From a virus: a stretch of DNA of 12,697 nt. Below are positions 1-12,697 of the stretch, one piece after another (positions within the stretch are counted from its first letter, which is position 1; the number at the start of each line of letters is the position of its first letter). Position numbers and translations under genes: made by a program. The notes beneath the pieces are model-generated. The model ran no database searches, was not told where the DNA came from, and was given only the letters and a program-made list of their open reading frames with translations. The stretch is taken from positions 1-12,697 of IMG/VR virus record IMGVR_UViG_3300029573_000061, one strand, 5' to 3'.

Positions 1-198
1 GACAGCTACGACCCGAAGACCAACACGCGCACTATCTCAAAGATTGAAAAAGTCTACGAGGTCAGCGTTTGCCCGTTCCCGGCTTACCCGGCGGCAAGCG
101 TTGAAGCGCGGAAGGCACGGCAAGACGGATTGAACCGCCTGGAAGCACTGAACAACGCGCGGATTCTTGCAAACATCATTTTGGCAAAGGAGTTTTAA
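1..198 (+). CDS. Prohead protease, HK97 family (C-terminal part of the gene that begins at 12218 and crosses the circular junction)
   Basis: Frame 1 from base 1 continues the frame of the ATG at 12218 (12599 is codon position 1 and equals base 1). Translation reads ...GMSFAFKVPQGGDSYDPKTNTRTISKIEKVYEVSVCPFPAYPAASVEARKARQDGLNRLEALNNARILANIILAKEF and stops at TAA 196-198. The catalytic-region motifs resemble HK97 gp4/U35 peptidases. The gene lies between portal and capsid as in HK97-like head modules. Confidence 0.8.
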   Translation, partial: DSYDPKTNTRTISKIEKVYEVSVCPFPAYPAASVEARKARQDGLNRLEALNNARILANIILAKEF

Positions 199-200
199 CC

Positions 201-1454
201 ATGTTTAAGACCGTTCAAGACGCATTCAACCACTACCGCAACTATTCCCTTGCGGACATTGAGAAGCGCGCCCAGGAGGTCAAGGGCGTTATTGAGACAG
301 ACCCCGGCGTAGACATCAAGGCCCTTAACATTGAGCTTACCGGCCTTGCGGAAGCCAAGGCCAACGCCCAGGAGAAGCAGGGCGACCAGGGCGGCGCACA
401 GGGCGCACAGGAGCCGGAGGCACGCGGCTACAACCCCATCACCGGCGCGAACTTTGCGGGCGGAAGCTACCAGGCGACCACGGGCGACGTTTACGCAAGC
501 GCGGAGTACCGCAGCGCCTTCTACAAGACCCTTACGGGCAAGAGCCTTAACCAGGCGGAGAAGAACGCATTTAACCGCGCTATGGAGATTGAGAAGCGGG
601 CCGGTTCGGACGCTTACACCACTTCCGGCAACACGCCCGTTATCATCCCAACGGCCACGCTCAACGAGATTGTGAGCAAGGCCCGCAACGAGGGCGGCAC
701 GCTTTCCATTGCCCGCGCGTTCAACATGCCCAGCAAGATTAGCATTCCCGTTGCCACGCCTTCCGGCAAGGCCGCATGGCACACGGAGGGCGCTACCGTG
801 AACACGGAGCAGCCCAGCGTTACCAACGTCACCTTTGACGCCAACGAGATTATCAAGATTTTCTCTATCAGCGCCAAGGTTAAGACCATGAGCATTAGCG
901 CGTTTGAGTCCTATCTTGCGGACGAACTCAACAAGTGCGTGTTTGAGTGCATCGCCGACAGCCTTATCAACGGCAACGGCACCAACCAGGGCATGGGACT
1001 TGAGAAGGGCGTTACCTGGAACGCCGAGAACAGCGTTACCGTTGCCAAGGGCGGTTCTATCGCCTACGCGGACGTTGTTAACACGGTTGCCCTTCTGAAG
1101 CGCGGCTATTCCAAGGGCGCTAAGTGGGTCATGAACAATGCCACCCTTTACCGCGTCTTCTATGGGATGCTGGACGGCAACAAGCGCCCCGTCTTCATCG
1201 CCGACACCCAGAACGACGGCATTGGCAAGATTCTGGGCTTTGAGGTTGTCGTAGATGATTATGTGGCCGACAACGTTTGCTATTTCGGCAACTTTGACTA
1301 TCTGGGCTACAACCTTGCCAACGGCATTGCGGTTGAGTCTTCTACCCAGTCCGCCTTCCGTTCCGGCCTTATCGACTATCGCGGCATGGCCATCGCCGAC
1401 ACGCGCGTTATCGTGCCGGAAGCCTTCACCAAGCTTGCCATTGCCACGGCCTAG
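201..1454 (+). CDS. Major capsid protein, HK97 fold, with an N-terminal scaffolding (delta) domain
   Basis: A 417-aa ORF begins 3 bp after the protease stop, with an AAGGAG ribosome-binding site at 187-192. The charged, coiled-coil-like N-terminal region (EKRAQEVKG...AEAKANAQEKQ) is followed by a capsid-fold region with an HK97-like C-terminus (GNFDYLGYNLANGIAVESS...GMAIADTRVIVPEAFTKL). Codon bias is strong toward CTT, CGC and AAC. Confidence 0.88.
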   Translation: MFKTVQDAFNHYRNYSLADIEKRAQEVKGVIETDPGVDIKALNIELTGLAEAKANAQEKQGDQGGAQGAQEPEARGYNPITGANFAGGSYQATTGDVYASAEYRSAFYKTLTGKSLNQAEKNAFNRAMEIEKRAGSDAYTTSGNTPVIIPTATLNEIVSKARNEGGTLSIARAFNMPSKISIPVATPSGKAAWHTEGATVNTEQPSVTNVTFDANEIIKIFSISAKVKTMSISAFESYLADELNKCVFECIADSLINGNGTNQGMGLEKGVTWNAENSVTVAKGGSIAYADVVNTVALLKRGYSKGAKWVMNNATLYRVFYGMLDGNKRPVFIADTQNDGIGKILGFEVVVDDYVADNVCYFGNFDYLGYNLANGIAVESSTQSAFRSGLIDYRGMAIADTRVIVPEAFTKLAIATA

Positions 1455-1466
1455 GGGGTATAGCGC

Positions 1467-1739
1467 ATGGCACAGGTTATAAGCATTGACGAAGCCCGCG
1501 AGTGGTTGCGCCTGGACGGCACCGACAACGACGCGGTTGTTTCCGGGCTTATCGACGGCGCGGCGGAGTACATCGCCATTGCTACCGGCCTGGACGCGAA
1601 CGCGCAAGCACAAAGCCCGTTGGCAAAGACGGCGACGAAGTTTCTTCTTTCGCTTTGGTACGACCCAACGCAGACCGACACCGACAGGCTGCAACGTTCA
1701 ATCGACAACCTGCTAAAGGCGGTTACGCACGTGGGCTAA
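1467..1739 (+). CDS. Head-tail connector protein (gp6-like, Phage_connect_1 family)
   Basis: A 90-aa protein beginning MAQVISIDEAREWLRLDGTDNDAVVSGLIDGAAEYIAIATG...LLSLWYDP...SIDNLLKAV. The size, N-terminal EA(K/R)xxLRxD motif and position immediately after the capsid gene match gp6-like head completion proteins. Confidence 0.75.
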   Translation: MAQVISIDEAREWLRLDGTDNDAVVSGLIDGAAEYIAIATGLDANAQAQSPLAKTATKFLLSLWYDPTQTDTDRLQRSIDNLLKAVTHVG

Positions 1740-1755
1740 AGGTGAGTGGTGGGCT

Positions 1756-2046
1756 ATGAAGGAATGGGCTAGACCGTTCTACACTTCCACGGCCTGGAGG
1801 AAGACCCAAAGGGCCTACATGGAAAGCAAGCACTATGTATGCGAGCGTTGCGGGAAACCCGCCTACATAGTCCACCACAAGACCTATCTAACGCCTAAGA
1901 ACATAGGCGACCCGGCAATAACGTTGGCATGGGACAACCTGGAAGCCCTATGCCAAACGTGCCACCAGCACGAGCATTTCAGAAACAACCAGGTAACGGC
2001 ACCGGGCTTGCGTTTCGACGCATCCGGGCAATTGACAAAGGAATAG
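1756..2046 (+). CDS. HNH endonuclease (phage packaging-associated)
   Basis: A 96-aa ORF carries WRKTQRAY...CERCGK...VHHKTYL...DNLEALCQTCHQHEH, the classic HNH and zinc-finger motifs. It sits just upstream of the terS-terL pair, as in HK97-like cos phages where the HNH protein assists terminase cleavage. Confidence 0.85.
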   Translation: MKEWARPFYTSTAWRKTQRAYMESKHYVCERCGKPAYIVHHKTYLTPKNIGDPAITLAWDNLEALCQTCHQHEHFRNNQVTAPGLRFDASGQLTKE

Positions 2047-2068
2047 GCGTTACGTTGCAGCAGACCGT

Positions 2069-2084
2069 TTGGGCCGTGGCCCAA
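2069..2084. repeat. Perfect 16-bp palindrome TTGGGCCGTGGCCCAA directly downstream of the HNH gene
   Basis: The reverse complement of TTGGGCC is GGCCCAA, with a 2-nt spacer. No T-tract follows, so it is not a canonical intrinsic terminator. It may be a protein-binding site, part of cos, or an RNA hairpin. Confidence 0.5.
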
Positions 2085-2465
2085 CCGTAACCCACGCGCA
2101 AGACCTATGGGGCCCTTGCCGGACTAGTCACCCGGCGGCGCTAACTAGTTCTTTCCGGTTCTTCTTCTTAGCGGTTCTTGTACCGGCCCCGGGCGGCGTG
2201 GAGTGGCGACCCATCCTAGCGCAAGGGCGGCAAGCCACGCGGTACCGCACGGAAGGGCTAGGCGGAAGCCTACGAACTGGGCGGGCTATCCTTACTTCTT
2301 CATCACCCAACCAGCTAGCGCGGTTCAAACGGCCTACTGGAGCGCAACGACCTAACCCGGACACCCCCAGCCCCCGAACGGACGGAAGGCGCGGCGTAAT
2401 CGAGCTGCCTACCTTTCCTTACCCGTCCGGGGTTTTCCATATGAGGGGGGTATATTTTGATATGA

Positions 2466-2481
2466 AAGACAGCAAGACAGC
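2466..2481 (+). promoter_or_regulatory. Tandem AAGACAGC x2 motif (copy 1 of 3 loci), abutting TTGACA at 2482-2487, upstream of terS
   Basis: The exact string AAGACAGCAAGACAGC recurs at 10863-10878 and as three units at 5050-5073. Each copy is intergenic and upstream of an operon. Confidence 0.6.
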
Positions 2482-2502
2482 TTGACATGTTGGGGTAATG
2501 GC

Positions 2503-2850
2503 ATGGAGATAGACAAAGACAAAATCAGACGCGCGGAAACGCGCAAGCTTAACCGGCTTGTTAAGGCCGTGCCGGACGAAAAGAAGACCGTTGCACAGAG
2601 CCTAACCAGGGAACTTGTCTTCATGGCGGGGACGCTGGAGGAGCTAAGGGCGTTCGTTGACGAAAACGGCGCGGTTGACAACTTCAAAAACGGGCGGCAA
2701 GAGATGCTAAGGGAATCCCCGGCGTTGAAGAGCTACAGTACGCTTATTCAGCGCTACAGCCTTCTTTACAAGCAGCTTTGCGACCTACTGCCTAAAGAGG
2801 TAGCCAAACAGGCGGAAGACGAACTAATGAACTTCCTGGGCATGGGCTAG
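2503..2850 (+). CDS. terS: Terminase small subunit, P27 family
   Basis: A 115-aa protein MEIDKDKIRRAETRKLNRLVKAVPDEKKTVAQSLTRELVFMAGTLEELRAF...YSLLYKQLCDLL matches the pattern of P27-family small terminases paired with HNH and Terminase_1 TerL. The start is chosen at the ATG at 2503, since the TTG at 2482 lacks a ribosome-binding site. The gene lies directly upstream of terL. Confidence 0.75.
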   Translation: MEIDKDKIRRAETRKLNRLVKAVPDEKKTVAQSLTRELVFMAGTLEELRAFVDENGAVDNFKNGRQEMLRESPALKSYSTLIQRYSLLYKQLCDLLPKEVAKQAEDELMNFLGMG

Positions 2851-2863
2851 GGGGCGGCAAGGC

Positions 2864-4504
2864 ATGAACTACCTAAAAGCCTACCTGGACGCGATAGAAG
2901 GCGGTGAGATTGTCGTATGCAAGCGGATACGGAAGGTTTACACGCGCCTTGTCTACGAAGCGGAAAACCCCGGCAAGTATCGCTTTGACGAAGAGCGGGC
3001 AAACCGCCCCATAGAATTCATTGAGCGCTTTTGCAAGCACAGCAAGGGCGAATGGGCGGGGCAACCCGTGCGCCTGGAGCTATTCCAGAAAGCTTTCATT
3101 AGTGCCTTGTTCGGCTTTGTTGACAGCAAGACAGGCTTTAGAAAGTACCGTGAAGCCTTCTTCATGGTTGCCCGGAAGAACGGAAAAAGCACGATGCTTG
3201 CGGGCATCGCCCTATACATGTTGCTTGCGGACGGGGAAGCGGGCGCGGAAGTCTACAGCGTTGCCACGAAGAAAGACCAGGCCAAAATCATTTTTGACGA
3301 AGTTTGCCACATGGTGAGCCAAAGCCCCTACCTGCGTAAGCACATCAAGAAGCGCAAAAGTGACCTTTACTTTTCGGCTTCAATGAGCAAGCTACAGCCC
3401 CTGGGCAAGAATTCCGACACCCTGGACGGCCTTAATTCGTCTTGCGTAATCCTGGACGAAGCCCACGCGGTGAAAGACCGCAACTTGTACGAGGTAATGA
3501 AGCAATCGCAAAGCGCTAGGACGCAGCCACTTTTCGTCACAATCACCACGGCGGGAACCGTGCGGGAATGCATCTTCGACGATATGTATTCCTACGCTTG
3601 CAAGGTTGCGGACGGGGTAATAACAGACCCAACATTTTTGCCAATCGTCTACGAGCTGGACAGCAAGGCCGAATGGAAAGACCCCGGCGCATGGTTCAAG
3701 CCAAACCCAGGGCTAGGACGGATAAAGAAGCTTGAAGACCTAATGGCGAAAGTCGAACGCGCAAAGCAAAGCCCAAAAGACCTTAGCGGCATTCTCTGCA
3801 AGGACTTCAACGTAAGGGAAACGCTTTACAACGCATGGCTTGACTTCGACACGATTAACAACGAATCGACATTCAGCCTAGAAGACTTTAGGGGTTGCTA
3901 TGCCATAGGCGGCGCGGACTTGTCACTAACGACAGACCTAACGTGTGCAACCGTCCTAATGCTCAACCCGGAAACGCGCGAGCGGTTCGTTTGGCAAATG
4001 TATTGGCTACCGGAAGACAACTTCAACCAGCGCGTTGCAGAGGAAAAAATACCCTACGACAAATGGCGGGAAGCGGGCCTGGTAAGGCTTTGCCGGGGAA
4101 ACACAATCGACTATAGCGACGTGACAGCGTGGTTTCTGGAGCTAGTCAACGAACACGGCATAACGCCTCTATGGGTTTACTACGACAGTTGGAGCGCCCG
4201 TTACTGGGTTGAGGAAATGGAGGGCTACGGCTTCAAAATGGAGCGGTGCATACAGGGGGCCAAGACGCTTTCACTTCCAATGCAAAACCTGGGCGCGGAC
4301 TTGCAGGCAAAGAAAGTCAACTACAACAACAACCCAATCTTGAAATGGTGCCTAACCAACACGGCGGTACAGGAAGACAGGAACGGCAACATAGTCCCAA
4401 AGAAGGCAAGCAGCCCGAAACAGCGCATAGACGGCACGGCAAGCCTTCTGGACGCTTACGTAGGGCTTTACGAGAAATACAACGAGTTTCTAAACGCACT
4501 GTAG
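2864..4504 (+). CDS. terL: Terminase large subunit (Terminase_1 family: ATPase plus RNaseH-like nuclease)
   Basis: A 546-aa protein with the Walker A-like motif VARKNGKST, a Walker B/DE region (SCVILDEAHAV) and a C-terminal nuclease motif (KQRIDGTASLLDAYV). The GGGGCGGCAAGG ribosome-binding region precedes the ATG at 2864. Confidence 0.9.
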   Translation: MNYLKAYLDAIEGGEIVVCKRIRKVYTRLVYEAENPGKYRFDEERANRPIEFIERFCKHSKGEWAGQPVRLELFQKAFISALFGFVDSKTGFRKYREAFFMVARKNGKSTMLAGIALYMLLADGEAGAEVYSVATKKDQAKIIFDEVCHMVSQSPYLRKHIKKRKSDLYFSASMSKLQPLGKNSDTLDGLNSSCVILDEAHAVKDRNLYEVMKQSQSARTQPLFVTITTAGTVRECIFDDMYSYACKVADGVITDPTFLPIVYELDSKAEWKDPGAWFKPNPGLGRIKKLEDLMAKVERAKQSPKDLSGILCKDFNVRETLYNAWLDFDTINNESTFSLEDFRGCYAIGGADLSLTTDLTCATVLMLNPETRERFVWQMYWLPEDNFNQRVAEEKIPYDKWREAGLVRLCRGNTIDYSDVTAWFLELVNEHGITPLWVYYDSWSARYWVEEMEGYGFKMERCIQGAKTLSLPMQNLGADLQAKKVNYNNNPILKWCLTNTAVQEDRNGNIVPKKASSPKQRIDGTASLLDAYVGLYEKYNEFLNAL

Positions 4505-4518
4505 AAGGAGGGCTAGAA

Positions 4519-4923
4519 ATGGCCGGAAAACAGGTTCTAAAGGATAAGAAAATCGTTATCTACAAGAAGCTAAGCTATAGGGATGCGGAGGGCTATCCGA
4601 CTACCGGCTATATGCCGGTACACCCGCAGCCTAGTATCTGGGCTTACTTCAAACAGCTTTCGACAAGCCTTGTCTATGCGAGCAGCACCACGACCACAAA
4701 GGAAGATTGCCTTTTCCGTATCAATTGGCTGGATTGCTTGCGCACGGCTTACCCCAGCGACCTGGTAATCGGGTATAGGGGCATTCTCTACCAGGTTACG
4801 CGCATTGACCCATACGAGGACTATACGCGCGACATGGTTTTGTACGGTAGCCGAAAGGACGGCAATACCATTAGCCCAATAATCCCTTACGACCCCAAGA
4901 AGCTAGCCCAAAACGGGAAATAG
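4519..4923 (+). CDS. Head closure / head-tail joining protein (Phage_H_T_join, SPP1 gp16-like)
   Basis: A 134-aa ORF with a strong ribosome-binding site (AAGGAGGG) before the ATG at 4519. It carries the family-typical C-terminal pattern ...KEDCLFRINWLDCLRTAYPSDLVIGYRGILYQVTRIDPYEDYTRDMVLYG. The long ORF-track N-terminal extension (4246-4518) overlaps terL and is rejected. Confidence 0.7.
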   Translation: MAGKQVLKDKKIVIYKKLSYRDAEGYPTTGYMPVHPQPSIWAYFKQLSTSLVYASSTTTTKEDCLFRINWLDCLRTAYPSDLVIGYRGILYQVTRIDPYEDYTRDMVLYGSRKDGNTISPIIPYDPKKLAQNGK

Positions 4924-4986
4924 CCCCAGGAGCCACAGAAAGCCCCGTAGCGGCGCGTTAGCGCGGCAATGGGCAAATACTCAAAG

Positions 4987-5031
4987 CGGCCTTTTAGAAC
5001 GCCTTAAAAGCGATTCTAGAAGGCCGTTTTT
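4987..5031 (+). terminator. Rho-independent terminator candidate after the terS-terL-head closure operon
   Basis: CGGCCTT (4987-4993) pairs with AAGGCCG (5020-5026), and inner pairing is TAGAA/TTCTA and CGC/GCG around a CTTAAAA loop. A TTTTT tract follows at 5027-5031. The hairpin is long and imperfect. Confidence 0.5.
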
Positions 5032-5049
5032 CTATGCAAACAAAGCTAG

Positions 5050-5073
5050 CAAGACAGCAAGACAGCAAGACAG
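5050..5073 (+). promoter_or_regulatory. Tandem CAAGACAG x3 motif (copy 2 of 3 loci), 20 bp upstream of a -35 element
   Basis: The sequence is CAAGACAGCAAGACAGCAAGACAGC, the same 8-mer unit as at 2466-2481 and 10863-10878. Confidence 0.6.
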
Positions 5074-5092
5074 CAAACAAATCAAAAATCTA

Positions 5093-5122
5093 TTGACAAG
5101 TTAGCCATATGGCCGTTAAAAT
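5093..5122 (+). promoter_or_regulatory. Sigma70-type promoter (-35 TTGACA, 18-bp spacer, -10 TAAAAT)
   Basis: TTGACA lies at 5093-5098 and TAAAAT at 5117-5122. The shared CATATGG..TAAAAT core also occurs at the portal-operon promoter (10933-10945). The predicted transcription start is near 5130, upstream of the SD-preceded ATG at 5163. Confidence 0.6.
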
Positions 5123-5162
5123 GGACAATGTAGTAACGGACTGCCTAGAAGAAGGGGCGACC

Positions 5163-5978
5163 ATGGTTAACGTTATCGACCTATCGGACATTGGGGCGGC
5201 AAGGGAAGACGAAAAGCCAAAGAGCAAGGGCATTCACATTGCCGTCATTGAGCCGGGGAAAGACCCGTACTTGAAGAAGGTAGCCCCGGACGCGGACGGC
5301 AGCTATCTGGGCGCGTTTCAAGACGAGGTAGGCGTGCTTGTGGAAGCCTACGAACCGCCATTCGGTGAAACGCCCTTGCTTTGGGTCAACGAAGAACTTC
5401 CGTTCAACGGCTCAACGCCAAACCGCGCAATCTACGCAAACAAGCGCATGGAGGGCATGGGCTATCTTTCCGAATTCGGCGACCACAGCAAGGCGGTAAA
5501 GGCGGGCGAGCTGTACGGCATCATTTGCGGCACGTTCATTGCCGTTTCGTACGACAGGGACGAAGAGGGCAACGACAAGCCCAGGGACATAACCGTAGAA
5601 GAATGGCTGGACGTGTGCGCGGCTTTCGCGGGCATCCGCAGCGTTCTTAGCGGTGCCCTGGAGGTCACGGGCCTACAGCGCGAGCATTGCACCGAACACA
5701 TAAAGGTGAACTTGCCCGGAAGCAAGGCGGACGAAGGCACCGGCAACGGTGAAGGCGTTTGGGTTCTTGTGAACAAGCCCGTGAAAGAAGACTACGACGC
5801 GGACGCGCGGGGCGGTTTCTATTTCGGCATCCTGGACAACGATTCTTGCTATTGGCCCGGACTCAACCACGGGGCCGTTATCCCGTTCGAAATGCGCGGC
5901 GACAAGCGACCCGTAGCGCCATATGAATGGCTTTACGACGGTTCAGAGCGCGAAAAGAAGTTCGGGAAGCTGGACTAG
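5163..5978 (+). CDS. DUF3846-like domain protein (N-terminal domain) with an uncharacterised C-terminal region
   Basis: The N-terminal segment IHIAVIEPGKDPYLKKVAPDADGSYLGAFQDEVGVLVEAYEPPFGETPLLWVNEELPFNGSTPNRAIY...GELYGIICGTFIAVSYDRDEEGNDKPRDITVEEWLDV follows my remembered DUF3846 pattern (IEPGK...LQ..VGG.IE...NEEG...N...I.G.F.I). That domain is common on conjugative and mobile elements, often near anti-restriction genes. The start is chosen at the ATG at 5163 (AAGGGG ribosome-binding site), because the ATGs at 5109 and 5121 fall inside the predicted promoter. Confidence 0.45.
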   Translation: MVNVIDLSDIGAAREDEKPKSKGIHIAVIEPGKDPYLKKVAPDADGSYLGAFQDEVGVLVEAYEPPFGETPLLWVNEELPFNGSTPNRAIYANKRMEGMGYLSEFGDHSKAVKAGELYGIICGTFIAVSYDRDEEGNDKPRDITVEEWLDVCAAFAGIRSVLSGALEVTGLQREHCTEHIKVNLPGSKADEGTGNGEGVWVLVNKPVKEDYDADARGGFYFGILDNDSCYWPGLNHGAVIPFEMRGDKRPVAPYEWLYDGSEREKKFGKLD

Positions 5979-5986
5979 GGGCGACC

Positions 5987-6052
5987 ATGAAACCAGGCGA
6001 CTTTATCCGAAAGGAAGACCCGCACGGCAAGAAACTGGAGGGTACCAAATGA
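5987..6052 (+). CDS. Possible 21-aa upstream ORF (MKPGDFIRKEDPHGKKLEGTK) translationally coupled to the next gene
   Basis: A GGGG ribosome-binding site lies 4 nt upstream of the ATG at 5987. The stop TGA at 6050-6052 overlaps the ATG at 6049 of the downstream gene in an ATGA arrangement. Such a small ORF may be fortuitous. Confidence 0.2.
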   Translation: MKPGDFIRKEDPHGKKLEGTK

Positions 6053-6369
6053 GCAAATGGGTTGTAACGCGCAAGCTTACGGGCGCGTTTGAGGGCTTCA
6101 AACAGTCTTTGACGATTGACGCGGACGCGGTAGCCATCCCGCTTGACGCGGAAATAGACGAGGGCGGCGCGGTTGCCCGCTTCAACGGCTTTGCAATCCC
6201 GCTGGAACCGGGCGACAGGGTTAACCAGGCGCGAGTTTGCCCGGAGTGCGGGCGCGTTTACACGGAATACCCGGCGCTAAGCCGCAAGGACAACCAGACG
6301 GAAATTTGCCCGGAATGCGGCACACGTGAAGCCCTGGAAGCGTTCGAACGATACCAGGAAGGACGGTAA
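6049..6369 (+). CDS. Zinc-ribbon protein with a double CPECG motif, function unknown
   Basis: A 106-aa ORF with a GGAGGG ribosome-binding site 7 nt upstream. Two CxxC pairs (CPECGRVY...CPECGTRE) are spaced as in a Zn-ribbon. I do not recognise a family for it. Confidence 0.55.
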   Translation: MSKWVVTRKLTGAFEGFKQSLTIDADAVAIPLDAEIDEGGAVARFNGFAIPLEPGDRVNQARVCPECGRVYTEYPALSRKDNQTEICPECGTREALEAFERYQEGR

Positions 6370-6374
6370 AAGGC

Positions 6375-6833
6375 ATGGGAAGCTATACCCTTTACGCCCT
6401 TGCTGTACCGGACGGGCGAATACCGCGCCTTTACGTGGGCGTTACCGCCCAGAAGCCTACTAGGCGCTGGAACGGCGGCGAGGGCTACAAGAGCTCGGCA
6501 AAGTTCTACCAGGCAATCAAGGCTTGCGGCTGGAACAACGTTAGGCACTTCATCATTGCGGACGGCTTGACGGAAGAAGAAGCCTACAGGCTGGAGCGCG
6601 AGGAAATAGGCCGAATGCGGCTAACCGCCCTGGGCTGGAACGTGGCACCGGGCGGCAAGGAACCATGGAACAAGGGCAAGACGGGCGTTTTCACAGCGGA
6701 AGCCCTGGAGAAAATGCGGCGGGCGAAGATAGGCAACAAATACGCGGCGAAGAAGAGAAAGGGGCCGGAATATGAAGGCGATAGCGATAGTGAACCAGAA
6801 GGGCGGCGTTGGAAAGACAACGACAGCCGTTAA
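6375..6833 (+). CDS. GIY-YIG nuclease family protein with a NUMOD3-like motif (homing-endonuclease-like)
   Basis: TLYALAV...RLYVGVTAQKPTRRW has the GIY-(10 aa)-YIG spacing and the conserved Arg. The downstream acidic motif LEREEI and the segment GKTGVFTAEALEKMRRAKIGNK resemble a NUMOD3 DNA-binding module. The 3' end overlaps parA by 62 nt in another frame. Confidence 0.55.
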   Translation: MGSYTLYALAVPDGRIPRLYVGVTAQKPTRRWNGGEGYKSSAKFYQAIKACGWNNVRHFIIADGLTEEEAYRLEREEIGRMRLTALGWNVAPGGKEPWNKGKTGVFTAEALEKMRRAKIGNKYAAKKRKGPEYEGDSDSEPEGRRWKDNDSR

Positions 6834-7530
6834 CCTGGGCGCGGCGCTTTCCGACAGCGGGAAGCGCGTTCTATTGGTTGACTTAGACCCGCAAGGGAGC
6901 CTAACAACCAGCCTGGGCGTAGACGTTGCCCAGGAAGATACAACGGCCTATGAGCTATTGAGGGGCGACAAGCCCGCGCAAGAGGTCATAAGGCACATGA
7001 AAAGGGGTTACGACCTAATACCCGGCGACCTGCGACTAACGGGGATTGAGAAGGGAAGCAACGACGTAGTAGGGCGCGAATACCTGCTAAAAGAAGCCCT
7101 GGAGGGCGTTACGGGCGCATACGACTACGTTTTAGTGGACTGTAGCCCTTCCCTGGGCGTTCTTTCGCTCAACGCGCTAACGGCATGTGACGCGGTTCTA
7201 ATCCCCACCCAGGCGGAATACCTAGCCCTAACCGGGCTTGCACAGCTTACGCAGACCATAGCCGTTGCAAGGCGGCGGCTAAACCCGTCCCTAACCATAG
7301 CGGGCGTGGTTATGACAATGTACGACAGGCGCAAAAACCTAACGGCGGCGGTAGAAGCACGCCTGGGCGAACTGTTCCCCGGCAAGCTTTGCAAGACCCG
7401 CATTAGGTGCAACGTCGCGCTAGCGGAAGCGCCCACGCAAGGCGTTGATATTTTCGCCTACGACCCACGGAGCAACGGGGCGAAAGACTACCAGGCGCTA
7501 GCGGACGAACTAACGGAGAAGGAGCAATAG
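6772..7530 (+). CDS. parA: ParA/Soj-family partition ATPase (type Ib)
   Basis: It has the deviant Walker A motif KGGVGKTTT at the N-terminus (MKAIAIVNQKGGVGKTTTAVNLGAAL), is 252 aa long, and is followed 2 bp later by a small RHH protein gene. Confidence 0.9.
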   Translation: MKAIAIVNQKGGVGKTTTAVNLGAALSDSGKRVLLVDLDPQGSLTTSLGVDVAQEDTTAYELLRGDKPAQEVIRHMKRGYDLIPGDLRLTGIEKGSNDVVGREYLLKEALEGVTGAYDYVLVDCSPSLGVLSLNALTACDAVLIPTQAEYLALTGLAQLTQTIAVARRRLNPSLTIAGVVMTMYDRRKNLTAAVEARLGELFPGKLCKTRIRCNVALAEAPTQGVDIFAYDPRSNGAKDYQALADELTEKEQ

Positions 7531-7532
7531 GA

Positions 7533-7838
7533 ATGGCAAGAAAGAAAGACTTTGGACTAGAAGCGGTTGAAGCGTTCCTGGACGCGGACGAACAGGAAGA
7601 GAAGCAACAGGAAGAGAAGAAGGCAAAGAGGGAAGCCACCCTGGTTTCATGGCGCATAAGCAACGACACGCTAAGGCGGTTCAAGGGCTTTGCAATCATG
7701 AACGGCGGCACCCAGATAGAAGCCATTGAGAAGGTAATTAACGACTACCTGGACGGCAAGGCGCTGGAGCCGGAAGAGAAACAGGCATACGACGCTTTCA
7801 TGAGGGTTTACAAGCCCAGAAAAAACGGAGGTGCATAG
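7533..7838 (+). CDS. Ribbon-helix-helix (ParG/CopG-like) protein, likely the centromere-binding partner of ParA
   Basis: A 101-aa protein with an acidic/Lys-rich flexible N-terminus followed by an RHH-like segment (ATLVSWRISNDTLRRFKGFAIMNGGTQIEAIEKVINDYL). Its position directly downstream of parA is typical of type Ib partition cassettes. Confidence 0.55.
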   Translation: MARKKDFGLEAVEAFLDADEQEEKQQEEKKAKREATLVSWRISNDTLRRFKGFAIMNGGTQIEAIEKVINDYLDGKALEPEEKQAYDAFMRVYKPRKNGGA

Positions 7839-7840
7839 CA

Positions 7841-8080
7841 ATGCGAATGCAGATTGACGGCGTTACCTACTACGACAAGGACGAAGTTGCAAAGCTTTTC
7901 AACTGTTCCACGCGGACGGTAAGGCGCTACCAGCTTGCGGGCCACTTTGAGCAAAGGAAGGTAAACCGTAGTTGGTTCTTCACGGAGCAAAGCGTTTTGG
8001 ACTACCTGGAGCAAAGGGGCATCGTCTGCTATGCAAAGCCGGAAAAGAAGGGGGGCGCTACGAATGAGCAGAAAAATTAG
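7841..8080 (+). CDS. Helix-turn-helix DNA-binding protein (MerR/Xis/AlpA-like, HTH_17)
   Basis: A 79-aa protein carrying YYDKDEVAKLFNCSTRTVRRYQLAGHF, the characteristic excisionase/AlpA-type HTH. A GGAGGTG ribosome-binding site precedes the ATG. Confidence 0.6.
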   Translation: MRMQIDGVTYYDKDEVAKLFNCSTRTVRRYQLAGHFEQRKVNRSWFFTEQSVLDYLEQRGIVCYAKPEKKGGATNEQKN

Positions 8081-9224
8081 CGTTGTCGAATACGTGGGCA
8101 AGAGCCTGGGCGGGCGTAACTTGAAGGCCCTGGGCAATGCCCTGGGAACGTTGGTTGACAAGGGCGTAATTGAGTTTCACGAGGGCGCTAGCGCCGGATA
8201 CCTGGACAGCCTGGAGCTTGCGGACGGCAAGACGCTTGAAGACGTGGACGCGGCACTAGCGGACTACCTGCAAGCACAGACGGAGCCGAAGAGCGGCACG
8301 GCAATACGGACTTTGCGCGGACAGTACGAAAAAGGGCTAATAGTGCCTAGGGACGCTGTAACAAAGCGCGTCTTTGACGGTATGCCGTTCGACATTGAAA
8401 CGGCTATACAAGTCGTTAGCAAGGAATGCGCGGCGGACAGGTGCGCAAAAGACGTAATAGTTACCCTACGCAACAACCAGACAAAAATAAACGAAGTCAT
8501 GGACAAGCTTAACGCGGACGATAGGCGCGTTTTTGCGGCTATATGCAATTGCGTTGCCCAGGGAATACATAGGGTTACGCCAACGCAGCTTTTCAGGCTT
8601 GCATACCAGGAACCGAACGCCACGCCCTGGGAAACCCAACTGGAGCGAATGCACGACAGCATAGAGAAAATGGCAAGCATATACATAGTGCTTGACGTTA
8701 GCGCGATTTTTTCAATTTACCCAGAATTGAACATGATAAAGACGGAAGGCAACTTCATAGAGGTTACGGGGTGGGCATTCAGACCACACAAGGACGGCAA
8801 AATATCAACGTTCTACGAGTTCGGGCGGGCTATACCGGTTCTATACCAGTACGCCTTAGCCGTAAACCAAATGACAACCCTAAAGCCCACGAGGGCCAAC
8901 GCGCTTAGCACGAATCTAAGAAGGACGAAGGACAACCAGGCCGTTGTGCAGCTAATCGCCGACAGGGTAGACGGCCTGGAGGGAATGAAGAAGGGCGGCA
9001 AGAAGCCCTATAGGAACATGTACAAAATCAACTATCAAAGCTTTTACGACCGGGCGGACTTTTCTAAATGCTCATCAGACGATTCAAAGAAGAAGAAGCG
9101 CCAACGCATAAAGAATGCCGTTAGAAAACAGCTTGACTACCTTACGGAGCGCGGCGTAATCGCGAGTTGGGAACGCCTGGAGGACGGCACGGGCGTTGCC
9201 ATCAACCCCGGAGGGGCGGCGTAA
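8064..9224 (+). CDS. Hypothetical protein, possible replication initiator / iteron-binding protein
   Basis: A 386-aa ORF taking the ATG at 8064 (ribosome-binding site AAGAAGGGGGG), with an alternative ATG at 8031 that lacks one. No family is recognised. A wHTH-like segment (DDRRVFAAICNCVAQGIHRVTPTQLFRLAY) and a basic C-terminus (KKKKRQRIKNAVRKQLDYLTERG) are present. The gene lies between the regulator and primase genes, upstream of the iteron region. Confidence 0.3.
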   Translation: MSRKISVVEYVGKSLGGRNLKALGNALGTLVDKGVIEFHEGASAGYLDSLELADGKTLEDVDAALADYLQAQTEPKSGTAIRTLRGQYEKGLIVPRDAVTKRVFDGMPFDIETAIQVVSKECAADRCAKDVIVTLRNNQTKINEVMDKLNADDRRVFAAICNCVAQGIHRVTPTQLFRLAYQEPNATPWETQLERMHDSIEKMASIYIVLDVSAIFSIYPELNMIKTEGNFIEVTGWAFRPHKDGKISTFYEFGRAIPVLYQYALAVNQMTTLKPTRANALSTNLRRTKDNQAVVQLIADRVDGLEGMKKGGKKPYRNMYKINYQSFYDRADFSKCSSDDSKKKKRQRIKNAVRKQLDYLTERGVIASWERLEDGTGVAINPGGAA

Positions 9225-9226
9225 CC

Positions 9227-10213
9227 ATGCGGGCGCTAAGGAACATACCGGAAGAGTTGAAGGCCGTACCGCATTGGGTAACGCGCGGCATCAGCGGCGG
9301 CGGCGCGGCAGACCGCAAGAAGCCATACAACCCAAACACCAACGCCCCGGCTAGGGTAAACAACCCCAACACCTGGGCGACGTTCGAAGCGTGCGAGAAG
9401 GCCGTAAGGCGGGCGAGGTACAGCGGCCTGGGCTTTGTCTTCACCGGGGATTATCTGGTAATAGACCTGGACAACGTAATAGACGCAAGGGGCAACGTGC
9501 TAAGGGACGCGGCGCGGATAATCGAAGCCGTGGACAGCTACACGGAGAAGAGCCTAAGCGGGCGCGGCTTTCACATCATCGCCCACAAGCCGCCCTTTGA
9601 AATCGGCGTGAACCGCGCAAGCTTTGCCCTGGACGAAGCCACGCTAGCGAGGTTCACGCGGGAAGAGCTGGACAGGGCCACGGGCGAGCTACGCGAGAAA
9701 AGGCCCGGAATAGAGTTTTACGACAGCGGGCGTTACATGGCGCTTACGGGCGACGTGTACCAGGGGCGCGACACGATAAGTGAAGCGCCGGAAGCCCTGG
9801 AGCGCGTCTATAGCGCCTACGTTGCGGGCGCTAGGGCCACGCAAGCCCAGAAGCCGCGCGTTGCGGCAAGCTACGCCACGGGCGGCAACCTGGAGACTGT
9901 AAGGGCGCGAATGTTCAGAGGGCGCAACCGCGACCAGATAAGACAGCTTTGGAGCGGCGACGTTAGCGCATGGGGAAGCGAAAGCGAAGCGGCGCTAAGG
10001 CTTTGCGACCATCTAGCCTTCTACACGGACAAAGACCCGGCGCAAATGGCGGCGCTATTCCGCCAAAGCGGGCTTTACCGCGCAAAGTGCGACGAACCGC
10101 GCGGGAACGGCAAAACATGGCTTGACGTTGTGATAGAAAAGGCAATGGCAAAGCCAATGGCGACTTATAGCGAATACGTGCAAGGCCACAGAAGCCCGTA
10201 TAAGGAGGGCTAG
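9227..10213 (+). CDS. DNA primase-polymerase (Prim-Pol N-terminal domain plus PriCT-like C-terminal motif), with no helicase domain
   Basis: The segment LKAVPHWVTRG...KKPYNPNT...NNPNTWATFEACEKAV...YSGLGFVFTGDYLVIDLDNV...SYTEKSLSGRGFHII follows the bifunctional primase/polymerase pattern seen in plasmid, PICI and P4 primases. The C-terminal SESEAALRLCDHLAFYTDKDPAQMAALFRQSGLYRAKCDEP matches the PriCT-type motif. A GGAGGGG ribosome-binding site precedes the ATG at 9227. Confidence 0.7.
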   Translation: MRALRNIPEELKAVPHWVTRGISGGGAADRKKPYNPNTNAPARVNNPNTWATFEACEKAVRRARYSGLGFVFTGDYLVIDLDNVIDARGNVLRDAARIIEAVDSYTEKSLSGRGFHIIAHKPPFEIGVNRASFALDEATLARFTREELDRATGELREKRPGIEFYDSGRYMALTGDVYQGRDTISEAPEALERVYSAYVAGARATQAQKPRVAASYATGGNLETVRARMFRGRNRDQIRQLWSGDVSAWGSESEAALRLCDHLAFYTDKDPAQMAALFRQSGLYRAKCDEPRGNGKTWLDVVIEKAMAKPMATYSEYVQGHRSPYKEG

Positions 10214-10235
10214 GCACCAAACGGGGCATTTGCCC

Positions 10236-10286
10236 ACGAACTGAATTAAAGGCCGTAGAAACGGCATCACAGCGCCCCACAGGGGC
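10236..10286 (+). repeat. Roughly 50-bp imperfect direct repeat, copy A (its 3' half is the terminator hairpin)
   Basis: GAACTGAATTAAAGGCCGTAGAAACGGCATCACAGCGCCCCACAGGGGC at 10236-10286 is matched at 10419-10469 by GAACGAATTTAAAGCGGTTCTAGGGGCATCACAGCGCCCCACAGGGGC. The last 24 bp are identical in both copies. Confidence 0.7.
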
Positions 10287-10297
10287 GTTTTTCTTTT
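10271..10297 (+). terminator. Strong intrinsic terminator after the primase gene
   Basis: The stem CGCCCC (10273-10278) pairs with GGGGCG (10282-10287) around an ACA loop, extended by an A-T pair. The tract TTTTTCTTTT at 10288-10297 follows. Confidence 0.75.
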
Positions 10298-10418
10298 GCC
10301 CACGCAAACCGCGCGAGCCTGGGCGGCACAAACTGGGCTTTGCGCCCCGGCCCTGGAAGCCACAAGCCCACAGAATCGTTTTTAAGCGTCATTTAGCCCA
10401 TGCATAGGGCGTTTTCCC

Positions 10419-10469
10419 ATGGAACGAATTTAAAGCGGTTCTAGGGGCATCACAGCGCCCCACAGGGGC
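10419..10469 (+). repeat. Roughly 50-bp imperfect direct repeat, copy B (same GC hairpin but no T-tract)
   Basis: See copy A. The sequence following this copy is ATCTAAAGC, so the hairpin here would not terminate transcription. Confidence 0.7.
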
Positions 10470-10545
10470 ATCTAAAGCAATCCTGGACGCACAAACCACG
10501 GCACAAGCTAAACGACGGGCTACCAAAGCCGCCCCAAACTACCCC

Positions 10546-10568
10546 GCCCCTAATGTTTCGAACATGTT
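10546..10568. repeat. Two 11-bp direct repeats ATGTTTC(G/A)AAC containing the short palindromes TTCGAA and AACATGTT
   Basis: The sequence CTAATGTTTCGAACATGTTTCAAAC lies immediately upstream of the iterons and shares the CATGT core with them. Confidence 0.55.
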
Positions 10569-10569
10569 T

Positions 10570-10635
10570 CAAACCATGTAGAAGTGTCCCCCAAACCATG
10601 TAGAAGTGTCCCCCAAACCATGTAGAAGTGTCCCC
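10570..10635. repeat. Three perfect tandem 22-bp iterons (CAAACCATGTAGAAGTGTCCCC), putative replication origin
   Basis: The copies run 10570-10591, 10592-10613 and 10614-10635 and abut head-to-tail with no spacers. An AT-rich tract with a 2 x 10-bp tandem repeat (TACAAGTCTT at 10692-10711) follows. The region lies in a 770-bp non-coding stretch downstream of the primase operon. Confidence 0.7.
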
Positions 10636-10862
10636 CCCATTTTCGCCAAAAACGGCCTATTACCAGCGATAACGGCCAATTTTCCATTCGCTACAAGTCT
10701 TTACAAGTCTTTCTATCTATTACCTAATACAGGAAGGGGTACTAGTAAGACAGACTCACCTGTTAGTAGAAGCGCCCCAAAATCTTTTCTTCATTGCCTG
10801 GAGCGGAAAAGCGGGCGGACGAAAAACGCGCGGAAGTTTTCAACATTCCCATCTTTGCCACA

Positions 10863-10878
10863 AAGACAGCAAGACAGC
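10863..10878 (+). promoter_or_regulatory. Tandem AAGACAGC x2 motif (copy 3 of 3 loci), upstream of the portal operon promoter
   Basis: The 16-mer is identical to the one at 2466-2481. Confidence 0.6.
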
Positions 10879-10921
10879 TTAAATGTATAAGTGTATACCC
10901 ATGATGCATGTTTTGCTATGA

Positions 10922-10945
10922 TTGACAGCTTGCATATGGTAAAAT
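10922..10945 (+). promoter_or_regulatory. Promoter candidate for the portal-protease-capsid operon (extended -10 TGgTAAAAT; TTGACA 12 bp upstream)
   Basis: TTGACA lies at 10922-10927 and TGGTAAAAT at 10937-10945. The CATATGG-TAAAAT core is shared with the 5093-5122 promoter. The direct repeats GATTGAC x2 plus CATTGAC at 10956-10981 lie between the promoter and the portal start and are operator-like. Confidence 0.5.
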
Positions 10946-11000
10946 CGTCTATAGCGATTGACGATTGACTATCGTTCATTGACTTTTGGGGGGTGAAGAA

Positions 11001-12221
11001 GTGGGATTCTTGCAGACATTCAAGCGGCGTTTTCGTCCTGGGCGCGAACTTTCGCAGGTTCAGACGCTTACGGGCAACACGGCGACCTATACGGCATTCA
11101 GCGGCGGCGCTTACGATAACGACATTTACCGTGGAGCGGTTGACGCTATCGCACGCAATGCGGCAAAGCTCAAAGGGGCGCACATCGTCACCGGGGCGGA
11201 CAACCAGGCAAAGGCCGGGGACAAGTCACTAGACAGGCTTTTGCAGATTCAGCCAAACCCCTATATGACGGCCTACGACCTTATCTATAAGCTTTGCACC
11301 CACTACTATCTGAACAACAACGCCTTTGCCTTCCTGGACAGGGACGGGCGCGGGGCCGTTCGCAACGTGTACCCCATCACTTGCACCCAGGCGGACTTCT
11401 TGACCGATGCAAGCGGGCGGCTTTTCGTGCAATTCCGCTTTAGGAGCGGTAACACGTTCGTTCTTCCGTATGGCGACGTTATCCACTTGCGGCGCAACTT
11501 CAACAGCAACGACCTTATGGGCGACACAAACGAAGCCCTTTACCCGGCCCTGGAGCTAGCGCACACGGAGAATGAGGGCATTATCAACGGCATCAAGAGC
11601 GGCGCGACCATCCGGGGCATTCTCAAATACACCCAGGTTCTTGCACCGGAGAAGTTGAAGGCCGACAAAGAAGCGTTCATAGCCGAATACCTGGACGTTG
11701 CCAACAATGGCGGCATTGTCGCCACGGATTCAAAAAGCGAATACGTGCCGATTGACAGCAAGCCCGTTACCATCGACCCGGAGCAGACGAAGACCACGGC
11801 GACGAAGATTTACAACTACCTGGGAATTTCGGAGAAAATCGTAAATTCGACCTATTCGGAAGACGAATGGGGCGCGTTCTACGAATCCGTTATTGAGCCG
11901 TTCGCCCTTCTGCTTTCCCTGGAGTTCACGCGCAAGGTTTTCACGGAGCGCGAACGCGCATTCGGCAACGAAATTCGTTTCGGCGCGGGGCGGCTTATGT
12001 ACGCATCAAACCAAACGAAGATTGAGACGGTACGCGAGCTAATGCCGTTCGGCGTTCTTACTGTCAACCAGGCTTTGGAGATTCTCAACCTTCCGCCCGT
12101 TGAAGACGGCGACAGGCGTTTGCAGTCGCTCAACAACGCCAACACGGAGATTGTGGACAGCTACCAGCAGCAGAAGGCGGCGGGGACGGCCCCGGACACT
12201 GAAAAGGGGGCTACGGCATGA
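11001..12221 (+). CDS. Portal protein, HK97 family
   Basis: The ORF frame runs 10986-12221. The likely start is the GTG at 11001, which has a GGGGGGTGA ribosome-binding region. The TTG at 10986 is the ORF-track start. The 406-aa length, the position upstream of the protease and capsid genes, and the 4-bp ATGA overlap with the protease start at 12218 all fit a portal gene. Confidence 0.8.
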   Translation: MGFLQTFKRRFRPGRELSQVQTLTGNTATYTAFSGGAYDNDIYRGAVDAIARNAAKLKGAHIVTGADNQAKAGDKSLDRLLQIQPNPYMTAYDLIYKLCTHYYLNNNAFAFLDRDGRGAVRNVYPITCTQADFLTDASGRLFVQFRFRSGNTFVLPYGDVIHLRRNFNSNDLMGDTNEALYPALELAHTENEGIINGIKSGATIRGILKYTQVLAPEKLKADKEAFIAEYLDVANNGGIVATDSKSEYVPIDSKPVTIDPEQTKTTATKIYNYLGISEKIVNSTYSEDEWGAFYESVIEPFALLLSLEFTRKVFTERERAFGNEIRFGAGRLMYASNQTKIETVRELMPFGVLTVNQALEILNLPPVEDGDRRLQSLNNANTEIVDSYQQQKAAGTAPDTEKGATA

Positions 12222-12697
12222 AAGAGCTAAGGACAGCGACAATCAAGGCGGACGCGCCCACGGCAGAGGGCGGCGGAAACCTTGTTTTGATAGGTACGCC
12301 AATCGTCTACGACACCCCGACAACGATTAACGACCCAGCGGGAAGCTACACGGAAGTTATCAAGCGCGGGGCGCTGGACGGCGCGGACATTGCGGACAGC
12401 CGTTTGCTTTACAACCACGACCTAAACCGCATCCCGCTAGCGCGTACACCCAAGACGCTTCATTTCAACGTCACCGGCAGGGGGCTTGAAATGCGGGCGG
12501 AATTGCCGGACACGGAGGAAGCGCGTTCTATTTACACGGCAGTGAAGCGCGGCGACCTATCCGGCATGAGTTTTGCGTTCAAGGTGCCACAGGGCGGCGA
12601 CAGCTACGACCCGAAGACCAACACGCGCACTATCTCAAAGATTGAAAAAGTCTACGAGGTCAGCGTTTGCCCGTTCCCGGCTTACCCGGCGGCAAGC
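12218..12697 (+). CDS. Prohead protease, HK97 family (N-terminal part; continues at 1-198 across the circular junction)
   Basis: The ATG at 12218 overlaps the portal stop, with an AAAGGGGG ribosome-binding site upstream. Translation reads MKELRTATIKADAPTAEGGGNLVLIGTPIVYDTPTTINDPAGSYTEVIKRGALDGADIADSRLLYNHDLNRIPLARTPKTLHFNVTGRGLEMRAELPDTEEARSIYTAVKRGDLSGMSFAFKV... and shows the H/S protease motifs of the U35 family. Confidence 0.8.
   Translation, partial: MKELRTATIKADAPTAEGGGNLVLIGTPIVYDTPTTINDPAGSYTEVIKRGALDGADIADSRLLYNHDLNRIPLARTPKTLHFNVTGRGLEMRAELPDTEEARSIYTAVKRGDLSGMSFAFKVPQGGDSYDPKTNTRTISKIEKVYEVSVCPFPAYPAAS
12599..12697. repeat. Terminal 99-bp exact duplication of bases 1-99 (circular-contig overlap)
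   Basis: Bases 12599-12697 are identical to bases 1-99 and sit inside the protease coding frame, which they keep continuous. This implies a 12,598-bp circular unit. Confidence 0.9.

Follow-up and report, generated by a model that had tools for sequence, protein, structure and literature searches.

Tandem octamer arrays at three positions of a circular satellite-plasmid, candidate sites of its own ribbon-helix-helix protein

Background

The ribbon-helix-helix (RHH) protein omega of plasmid pSM19035 is a ParB that binds arrays of 7-bp repeats overlapping three promoters, and RHH ParB proteins of this kind are both regulators and centromere binders. Two repeats are enough for tight binding of omega, but at least four contiguous repeats are needed for activation of its ParA (PMC9499535). 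Here we analyse dispersed tandem arrays of an octamer, AAGACAGC, in the IMG/VR virus record IMGVR_UViG_3300029573_000061 (positions 1 to 12,697; this whole stretch of 12,697 nucleotides is called the window), a circular, tail-less satellite-plasmid. Judging from the sequence patterns described below, the (AAGACAGC)2-3 arrays are probably the cognate sites of the 101-aa RHH protein encoded by the element itself (7533-7838), a ParB-like partner of its ParA. The best reading by analogy to omega of pSM19035 is that they act as an operator, a centromere, or both.

The similarity to the delta/omega pair of pSM19035 is one of organization. In both cases the gene of a small Walker-type ParA precedes that of a small RHH protein (a predicted one in the window) with a flexible N-terminal tail, and short non-palindromic units form contiguous tandem arrays in several places of the replicon. 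In pSM19035 these places are promoter regions of different operons; in the window, one array is clearly next to a promoter. However, there is no detectable homology, and no match to Pfam Omega_Repress was found for the 101-aa protein (p101) or other proteins of the window. The unit is an 8-bp AAGACAGC rather than the 7-bp WATCACW of omega, and the arrays contain 2-4 units as opposed to 7-10. One of them is promoterless and lies beside the presumed cos region. Finally, the adjoining genes are those of capsid and packaging, whereas omega regulates copy-control or toxin-antitoxin genes. By this comparison, the system would work like omega without belonging to its family by sequence.

The type Ib system ParF/ParG of TP228 also has an RHH binder that autoregulates the par operon. 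The ParG sites are short boxes with 8-bp spacing upstream of parF. They differ from the arrays considered here in sequence family and box and in being restricted to the par locus.

Vibrio is so far the only genus from which episomal capsid-forming satellites (cf-PISP) have been described (PMC13230959); the family of the window shows that such satellite-plasmids are common in gut Bacillota. Like cf-PISP, the element is circular and extrachromosomal, falls within the range of about 11-16 kb, encodes capsid, portal, protease, adaptor, HNH and terminase proteins together with parA and replication genes, and has neither tail nor integrase genes. Unlike them, it belongs to a family from Bacillota and gut metagenomes and carries a primase-polymerase replicon and a ParA-RHH-HTH_17 trio; the cf-PISP paper describes no repeat arrays. 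The cfPICI satellites have an equal set of head and packaging genes and no tails, and many relatives of the window terL are integrated into chromosomes as well. In contrast to cfPICI, the window has partition and replication genes, no integrase, and a different set of regulators.

Tandem arrays in the window

The exact 16-mer AAGACAGCAAGACAGC occurs at 2466-2481, 5051-5066, 5059-5074 and 10863-10878, always on the + strand. Only 0.01 matches are expected by chance, and the observed count was reached in none of 200 dinucleotide shuffles. The matches form three arrays, all of them intergenic.

2466..2489, + strand, site 1: two perfect AAGACAGC units (2466-2481) and a degenerate third, TTGACATG; between the cos-like element and the ribosome-binding site of terS
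5043..5076, + strand, site 2: three perfect units in tandem (5051-5074) with a degenerate unit, AAGCTAGC, ahead; 18 bp upstream of a -35 box
10863..10878, + strand, site 3: two perfect units in tandem; about 107 bp upstream of the portal open reading frame (ORF)

The first-pass annotation had listed the 16-mer at sites 1 and 3 with exactly these coordinates, and it was right about the intergenic location, the common orientation and the improbability of such a recurrence by chance. Its three-unit string is indeed present before the cargo operon, but the 25 nucleotides span 5050-5074 rather than 5050-5073. It also placed an array before each of three transcription units. Two units delimited by terminators are each preceded by an array, but no promoter is detectable before terS.

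Site 1 lies 15 bp past the cos-like element (2412-2451) and is separated from the start codon of terS by about 21 bp, and site 3 is within the long non-coding region that follows the primase-polymerase gene. At site 2, the degenerate unit AAGCTAGC occupies 5043-5050, and the periodic tract extends over 5048-5076, or 3.6 units. The likeness among the three sites ends at about 22 nt, and thus they are not copies of a longer cassette. As noted in the first pass, the array is followed by TTGACA at 2482 in site 1 and by TTAAAT at 10879 in site 3. The former was rejected as a -35 box of terS, since it is only 15 bp before the ATG at 2503; this stretch looks like the degenerate third unit, TTGACATG. 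As regards the omega-type placement relative to promoters, site 2 is promoter-proximal, site 3 is upstream of weak signals, and site 1 is promoterless.

A lone octamer unit was observed inside the primase-polymerase gene, at 9940. A degenerate dimer, TTGACAGCAAGACAGG, at 3120-3135 in terL encodes VDSKTG and is kept with the gene in the closest relatives (class A below); it is probably coincidental.

Repeat classes in related elements

The terL gene of the window has 465 relatives in IMG/VR, mostly on contigs of 11-15 kb, and 141 in species-representative genomes, nearly all from Bacillota (Clostridia, Bacilli). Some of these are stand-alone small contigs, many of 11-14 kb, and some are integrated into chromosomes. 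The stand-alone, plasmid-like members carry ParA-RHH-HTH_17 and a primase-polymerase, and the other members are integrated islands; the window is the plasmid form of the family. This picture of the family refers to the loci L043-L122 and L202-L281. A scan of IMG/VR with the exact 16-mer yielded 42 loci, where two contigs are relatives and the others are unrelated single matches. A screen of 80 terL relatives for exact tandem repeats mostly missed the arrays, as the units are degenerate, and a screen for periodic 5-mers worked. An unrelated 70-kb viral contig (L021) contains at least 12 AAGACAGC units in a run at 1446-1541; outside the repeat it has no similarity to the element.

The motif search in related contigs suggested in the first pass found arrays with a short period at the same three positions. 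The unit depends on the class of the element (AAGACAGC, GCTTACAT, GTAAACAT or GTTTACnnn) and changes together with the head of the RHH protein, here represented by its predicted strand.

Class A: strand TLVSWRIS, unit AAGACAGC; window, L043, L123, L282-286
Class B: strand VVVSFRLD, unit GCTTACAT; L045, L046, L293, L297
Class C: strand TVTFAFRT, unit GTAAACAT; L057
Class D: strand TRATFIVRED, unit GTTTACnnn with period 9; 13 of the 16 loci scanned
Further pair: strand VVSFRID, unit GTATACAT; L125

The class A unit occupies all three positions in L043/L020/L035, L044, L123 and L282-286, site 3 included. The class B relatives, whose terL is 85-88% identical to that of the window, have the 8-bp GCTTACAT or its complement GTAAG at the three positions, with four units ahead of the maintenance promoter. 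In L057, GTAAACAT is found at all three positions (20 matches versus 3.2 expected, 0/200 shuffles), and in L125 GTATACAT precedes terS. In a large group the unit is GTTTAC, recurring every 9 bp; some of its arrays, with 6-9 units, adjoin the RHH and HTH genes. All units share an ACA core. Counts of two-unit patterns across the loci form a diagonal matrix, each unit being confined to its own class. Since the three positions switch units jointly from relative to relative, one specificity serves them all. In outline, this supports the initial proposal of a single DNA-binding protein that would coordinate the head, packaging and maintenance operons.

The arrays could also be neutral, slippage-prone tracts of the microsatellite type with no function. 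The number of units does vary, as L282 has four perfect units at site 2 and the window has three. However, the recurrence of one unit at three separate loci goes far beyond chance, and across the classes the arrays stay in place although their unit is exchanged in a concerted way, which makes this explanation scarcely credible.

There are 30 RHH variants in class B; in the 19 sequences read the head is near-invariant and the N-termini are variable. In class A, the motif and the RHH head are identical and p101 and ParA are 87-99% identical, while HTH_17 goes down to 65%, and in several members the replication genes have been exchanged (47-49% identity of p397, a 397-aa protein, and 41-46% of the primase-polymerase). 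L046 lacks the DUF3846 and Zn-ribbon genes and has the same unit as L045. The DUF3846, Zn-ribbon, p397 and primase-polymerase proteins were rejected as binders, as they are absent or swapped among elements with the same motif. With at least five classes and units of 8 or 9 bp, the family would be a natural set of matched pairs of RHH heads and DNA units, useful for deriving the rules of RHH recognition.

Less regular cases were also observed. L049 (9471-9686) encodes a class C RHH protein and HTH_17 and no ParA; its class C units are few and degenerate (6 matches versus 4 expected) and lie before the portal gene, terS and the RHH gene. L078, an integrase-bearing relative with no ParA/RHH, has dense GTGAC arrays with a 9-bp period (4133-4220, 11795-12010) upstream of the portal gene and after terL and the head closure gene, that is, at the positions of sites 3 and 2. 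One more contig of the family, L299, is over-length at 21 kb.

The ParA protein and its candidate RHH partner

The genes of the candidate binder, of its presumed partner and of the nearest rival follow each other in one operon.

6772..7530, + strand: ParA of 252 aa with a deviant Walker A (residues 10-17); Pfam AAA_31 (8.5e-57), CbiA and ParA families; PHROG ParA-like (2.9e-64)
7533..7838, + strand: p101, the proposed RHH centromere or operator binder, 101 aa; basic tail MARKKDFGL, predicted strand TLVSWRIS, two helices
7841..8080, + strand: HTH_17 (AlpA/excisionase/MerR-like) protein; Pfam HTH_17 (1.1e-9); rival candidate binder

ParA contains KGGVGKT at residues 10-16, and its match to AAA_31 spans residues 1-176. 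Small, of the Walker type and with no N-terminal DNA-binding domain, it is type Ib-like. The gene of p101 starts at 7533, right after the parA stop at 7530, and genes of this type always directly follow parA in the relatives. There are 902 homologues of p101, mostly on contigs of about 12-14 kb. Throughout the family of the element the protein has a conserved basic N-terminus (MARKK or MSKKK), a variable linker and a C-terminal strand-helix-helix domain, a predicted layout that fits RHH proteins; in type Ib systems it is by the N-terminal tail that the RHH protein stimulates the ATPase of ParA. The family profile matches the RHH protein SvtR (2kel, E 4e-4) and a protein of the CopG family (9kkd, E 0.094). 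In the AlphaFold2 model an extended segment is followed by helices at 44-57 and 61-73, with a confidence score (pLDDT) of about 80 in that part.

The first-pass annotation assumed that the ParA/RHH pair has no repeat array next to its own operon. This is not the case: an array of three perfect units and the only strong promoter of the element stand at the head of the operon that includes parA and the RHH gene. As in type Ib systems with tandem sites, the array (3-4 units) is located 18 bp upstream of the promoter. The relation is most direct in L046, a relative with no cargo genes, where the array and the promoter are just upstream of parA with the homing-endonuclease-like gene alone between them.

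RHH compared with other candidate binders

The RHH protein had been one of several candidates in the first pass. It is now favoured by the classes of heads and units described above, by the dependence of the terS-proximal repeats on the ParA/RHH module, and by plasmid cassettes with cognate arrays. The HTH_17 protein, TerS and a helper factor are weaker rivals.

The dependence on the module was analysed in 56 non-redundant regions upstream of terS, 28 from elements with the RHH gene (RHH-plus) and 28 from elements without it (RHH-minus). In the former, the interval from the cos-like element to terS contains periodic repeats; in the latter it does not (Mann-Whitney p=7e-6), and complete elements lacking ParA/RHH have a short A-rich spacer there. 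This is not an effect of the terS lineage, because closely related terS genes from elements lacking RHH have no repeats. Indeed, terS of the RHH-plus L114 is nearer to those of the RHH-minus L095, L117 and L110 (61-65%) than to that of the RHH-plus L060 (53%), terS of L060 has RHH-minus relatives at 64-66%, and terS of L063 has one at 65%. In general, the RHH-minus relatives of these three (61-67%) are as close as, or closer than, the RHH-plus ones outside the respective subgroup.

The same regions bear on the possibility that the repeats are recognition sites of TerS, similar to cosB, that were copied to two other places. Site 1, 15 bp past the cos-like element, is exactly where cos phages have their TerS-binding sites, a single TAAAC unit after this element is a family-wide feature, and the identity of terS follows the motif between classes A and B, contig L287 (see below) included. 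On the other hand, the relatives with the closest terS and no ParA/RHH module have no repeats. The substitutions between the class A and class B TerS (80% identity) are evenly spread although the units are very different. Moreover, units of this type flank par cassettes on plasmids free of terminase genes, and additional terminase sites at the heads of operons would have no obvious use. Recognition by TerS is therefore quite improbable.

The plasmids in question, pA5BP1 of Flavobacterium, a Tenacibaculum plasmid and pl03 of Lawsonia intracellularis, are genuine plasmids from other phyla and encode ParA followed by an RHH homologue with the TRATFIV head. No terS or other terminase gene was found on these three plasmids, and no HTH_17 was detected among the scanned neighbours of ParA-RHH on the Flavobacterium and Tenacibaculum plasmids; in Lawsonia pl03 the gene after the RHH homologue is annotated as integrase. 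Units AGTAAAC/AGTAAT, the same as the class D satellite unit, precede parA; on the Flavobacterium and Tenacibaculum plasmids they also occur between parA and the RHH gene. They recur every 9 bp in Flavobacterium and Lawsonia and are spaced by 18/27 bp in Tenacibaculum. In the plasmid loci L305 and L304, where the arrays flank parA, the unit occurs 3 and 2 times, respectively, versus 0.14 expected in each (0/200 and 1/200 shuffles).

Binding of the arrays by the HTH_17 protein (AlpA/Xis/MerR-like), which is encoded right after RHH, is possible but unlikely. Winged-helix monomers of the HTH_17 type can align head-to-tail on direct repeats, and the packaging operons of other satellites are under the control of proteins of the AlpA type. 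All RHH-plus satellite relatives checked, L141 among them, have HTH_17, and in some class D elements (L114, L093, L060) the largest array adjoins the HTH_17 gene at its 5' end or runs into it. The recognition helix and the wing of HTH_17 differ somewhat between the classes. However, the helix is nearly unchanged between classes A and C (CSTRTVRRY and CSDRTVRRY) despite their different units. In class A, HTH_17 varies down to 65% identity with no change of the motif, while the RHH head is invariant. The stronger evidence is that of the plasmids, where ParA and RHH with no detected HTH_17 neighbour still go with arrays of the class D type. In the class D elements L114 (10040-10090) and L093, the 9-bp array extends into the start of the HTH_17 coding sequence and is translated as a repetitive N-terminal peptide, MSNTGNNGNISNIGN and MDNKDNIDNIDNKDNIDNID.

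The arrays could also be response elements for a protein of the host or of a helper phage, e.g. a late activator, and so serve to sense the helper. The head operon downstream of site 3 is preceded only by weak or extended -10-type signals, as is often the case with activator-dependent late promoters. Besides, three contigs of temperate siphophages (L290, L291, L292; 34-38 kb) with serine recombinase, tail genes, holin/lysin and HNH-terS-TerL contain a gene (10001-10435 / 10001-10384) for a protein of 127-144 aa with the class B RHH head KDVVVSFRLDEAVVERFNDYAF, and thus a phage protein could in principle recognise satellite arrays. The N-terminus of this protein is different from that of the satellite RHH, and there is a C-terminal extension. 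These contigs showed no structural-gene kinship to the satellites, and the phage contigs have no repeats in the 15-20 kb examined. No helper phage has been identified for the element, the unit co-varies with a protein encoded by the element itself, and ordinary plasmids have arrays flanking their par cassettes. Sensing of a helper by this route is improbable and not needed to explain the data, although the shared class B head could reflect cross-talk between helper and satellite.

An extended version of the RHH assignment has the protein as a master switch: besides segregation of the plasmid, it would keep the head operon silent and, beside cos, gate either the expression of terminase or access. 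A truncated paralogue with the same DNA-reading head, encoded by a helper phage, would then compete or heterodimerise with it, switching the satellite on; a paralogue of this kind is seen for class B in the siphophages of 34-38 kb. This version is rather unlikely. If true, it would be a new route of satellite induction.

Proposed role of the RHH protein and evidence against it

In the favoured reading, the arrays are bound by the RHH protein of the element. A dimer would read one non-palindromic 8-bp unit, and binding would be cooperative on two or more adjacent units. Site 2, the longest (3-4 units with degenerate neighbours) and adjacent to the promoter of the ParA/RHH operon, may be an autoregulatory operator and is the best candidate for the partition site. 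At sites 1 and 3, with two units each, the same protein would sit between the presumed cos region and terS and before the portal/head operon, respectively. By the omega yardstick, where binding needs two repeats and activation of ParA four or more, these two sites would be of the operator type, with either repression or activation conceivable at site 3. Site 1 may act as a roadblock, or control either the expression of terminase or access to cos. The capsid and packaging functions would thus be tied to the regulator of plasmid maintenance.

Regulator and centromere had been considered as alternatives in the first pass. Both are viable, but they do not exclude one another, since RHH ParB proteins, omega for one, have both functions (PMC9499535), and the two readings merge rather than compete. 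If RHH indeed binds the arrays, one small partition protein would link vertical inheritance to the control of capsid and packaging genes, and this would form a simple circuit that keeps the virion genes quiet during plasmid life.

Several observations weigh against this assignment. Arrays of two or three units fall short of the four or more contiguous repeats required for activation of ParA by omega, and the absence of a promoter makes a transcriptional role of site 1 doubtful. As for the classification of p101 as RHH, the protein passes no Pfam RHH threshold (RHH_10, E 0.05), the AlphaFold2 model is mediocre with an overall pLDDT of 62, and the top Foldseek matches, although RHH proteins, have E above 1. 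The siphophages with the class B head have no cognate CTTACA(T) repeats in the 15-20 kb examined. In every satellite relative examined, RHH comes together with HTH_17. The identity of TerS tracks the motif between classes A and B (at least 95% versus 80-83%), and many RHH-minus relatives, too, have the single TAAAC unit after the cos-like element. Moreover, all three sites adjoin the structural module, and hence exchange of this module would carry them along whichever protein binds them.

Contig L287 (ERZ1034962 NODE_563) is also at odds with the assignment and with the co-variation of RHH and motif. It joins a class A block of ParA, RHH and replication genes, 98.9% identical to L286, to a class B structural block with class B arrays at the three positions. 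The contig is 16.4 kb long, or 1.3 unit lengths, and its other end contains a part of a second, class B-like primase-polymerase gene; the inspection covered all of it except the remaining 3.5 kb. L287 is probably an assembly from a mixed population or a cointegrate, but may be a true recombinant, and we treat it as ambiguous.

Organization of the element

The exact overlap of 99 bp between the ends of the window (1-99 = 12599-12697) shows that the assembly is circular, with a length of about 12,598 bp. The genes all share one strand, and the protease gene spans the junction of the circle. The portal, protease, major capsid, head-tail connector and HNH genes are followed by 420 bp of non-coding sequence and then by terS, terL and the gene of the head closure protein. 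Next come the genes of DUF3846, Zn-ribbon and homing-endonuclease-like proteins, ParA, p101, HTH_17, p397 and the primase-polymerase, and 770 bp of non-coding sequence close the circle. The gene table of the orthologous element L123 matches this order. According to the ORFs and the Pfam and PHROG matches, capsid, portal, protease, adaptors, HNH, terS and terL are all present; no tail, lysis or integrase genes were found among the 16 genes by these data and the L123 table. The whole window had no megablast matches in collections of phages and plasmids, and Rfam and tRNA scans of it were negative too. The main genes and signals around the arrays are as follows.

2412..2451, + strand: cos-like inverted-repeat element, CCTTTCC...GGGGTTTTCCATATGAGGGGGG / CCTCTCC...GGGAGGGG; between HNH and terS
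2503..2850, + strand: terS, small terminase, PHROG 1066; downstream of site 1
4983..5036, + strand: terminator-like hairpin (4983-5030, -28.2 kcal/mol, z -6.2) with a U-run; closes the structural/packaging operon before site 2
5093..5122, + strand: sigma-70-like promoter TTGACA-18-TAAAAT; no other stretch of the element gives an 11/12 match
10271..10297, + strand: terminator-like hairpin (10271-10289) with a U-run; closes the maintenance operon
10986..12221, + strand: portal, Pfam Phage_portal on the L123 orthologue; opens the head operon, downstream of site 3

The cos-like element is kept family-wide, in both RHH-plus and RHH-minus relatives. We presume that it is the cos region, by analogy with its position in cos phages of the HNH/terminase type. 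It lies at the 3' end of the 420-bp GC-rich stretch between HNH and terS (2047-2465), in which no convincing ORF and no Rfam or tRNA match was found. The promoter at 5093-5122 heads the operon running from the DUF3846 gene through the Zn-ribbon, homing-endonuclease-like, ParA, RHH, HTH_17 and p397 genes to the primase-polymerase. An equivalent arrangement of array and promoter was observed in L046, L057, L060 and L064. Near site 3, the pair TTGACA at 10922 and TAAAAT at 10940 was rejected as a normal promoter, the spacer being only 12 bp. The candidates left there are weak, namely an extended -10 box TGgTAAAAT or AAGACA-17-TATAAG.

The non-coding region after the primase-polymerase gene contains other repeats. 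CAAACCATGTAGAAGTGTCCCCC, with a unit of 22 bp (23-nt copies with a one-base overlap), is repeated three times in perfect tandem at 10570-10636; it is iteron-like and likely marks the origin. A near-identical unit occurs twice in the class B elements L293 and L297, despite p397 being only 46-48% identical. An imperfect direct repeat of 63 nt (10224-10286 / 10407-10469, 78% identity) has the hairpin GCGCCCCACAGGGGC in each copy, followed by a U-run in the first copy (10224-10286) only. Upstream of the portal gene, ACAAGTCTTT occurs as two tandem copies (10693-10712); it is not class-specific, since a related sequence is present in class B elements as well. Finally, GATTGAC/CATTGAC occurs three times at 10952-10985, just before the ribosome-binding site of the portal gene.

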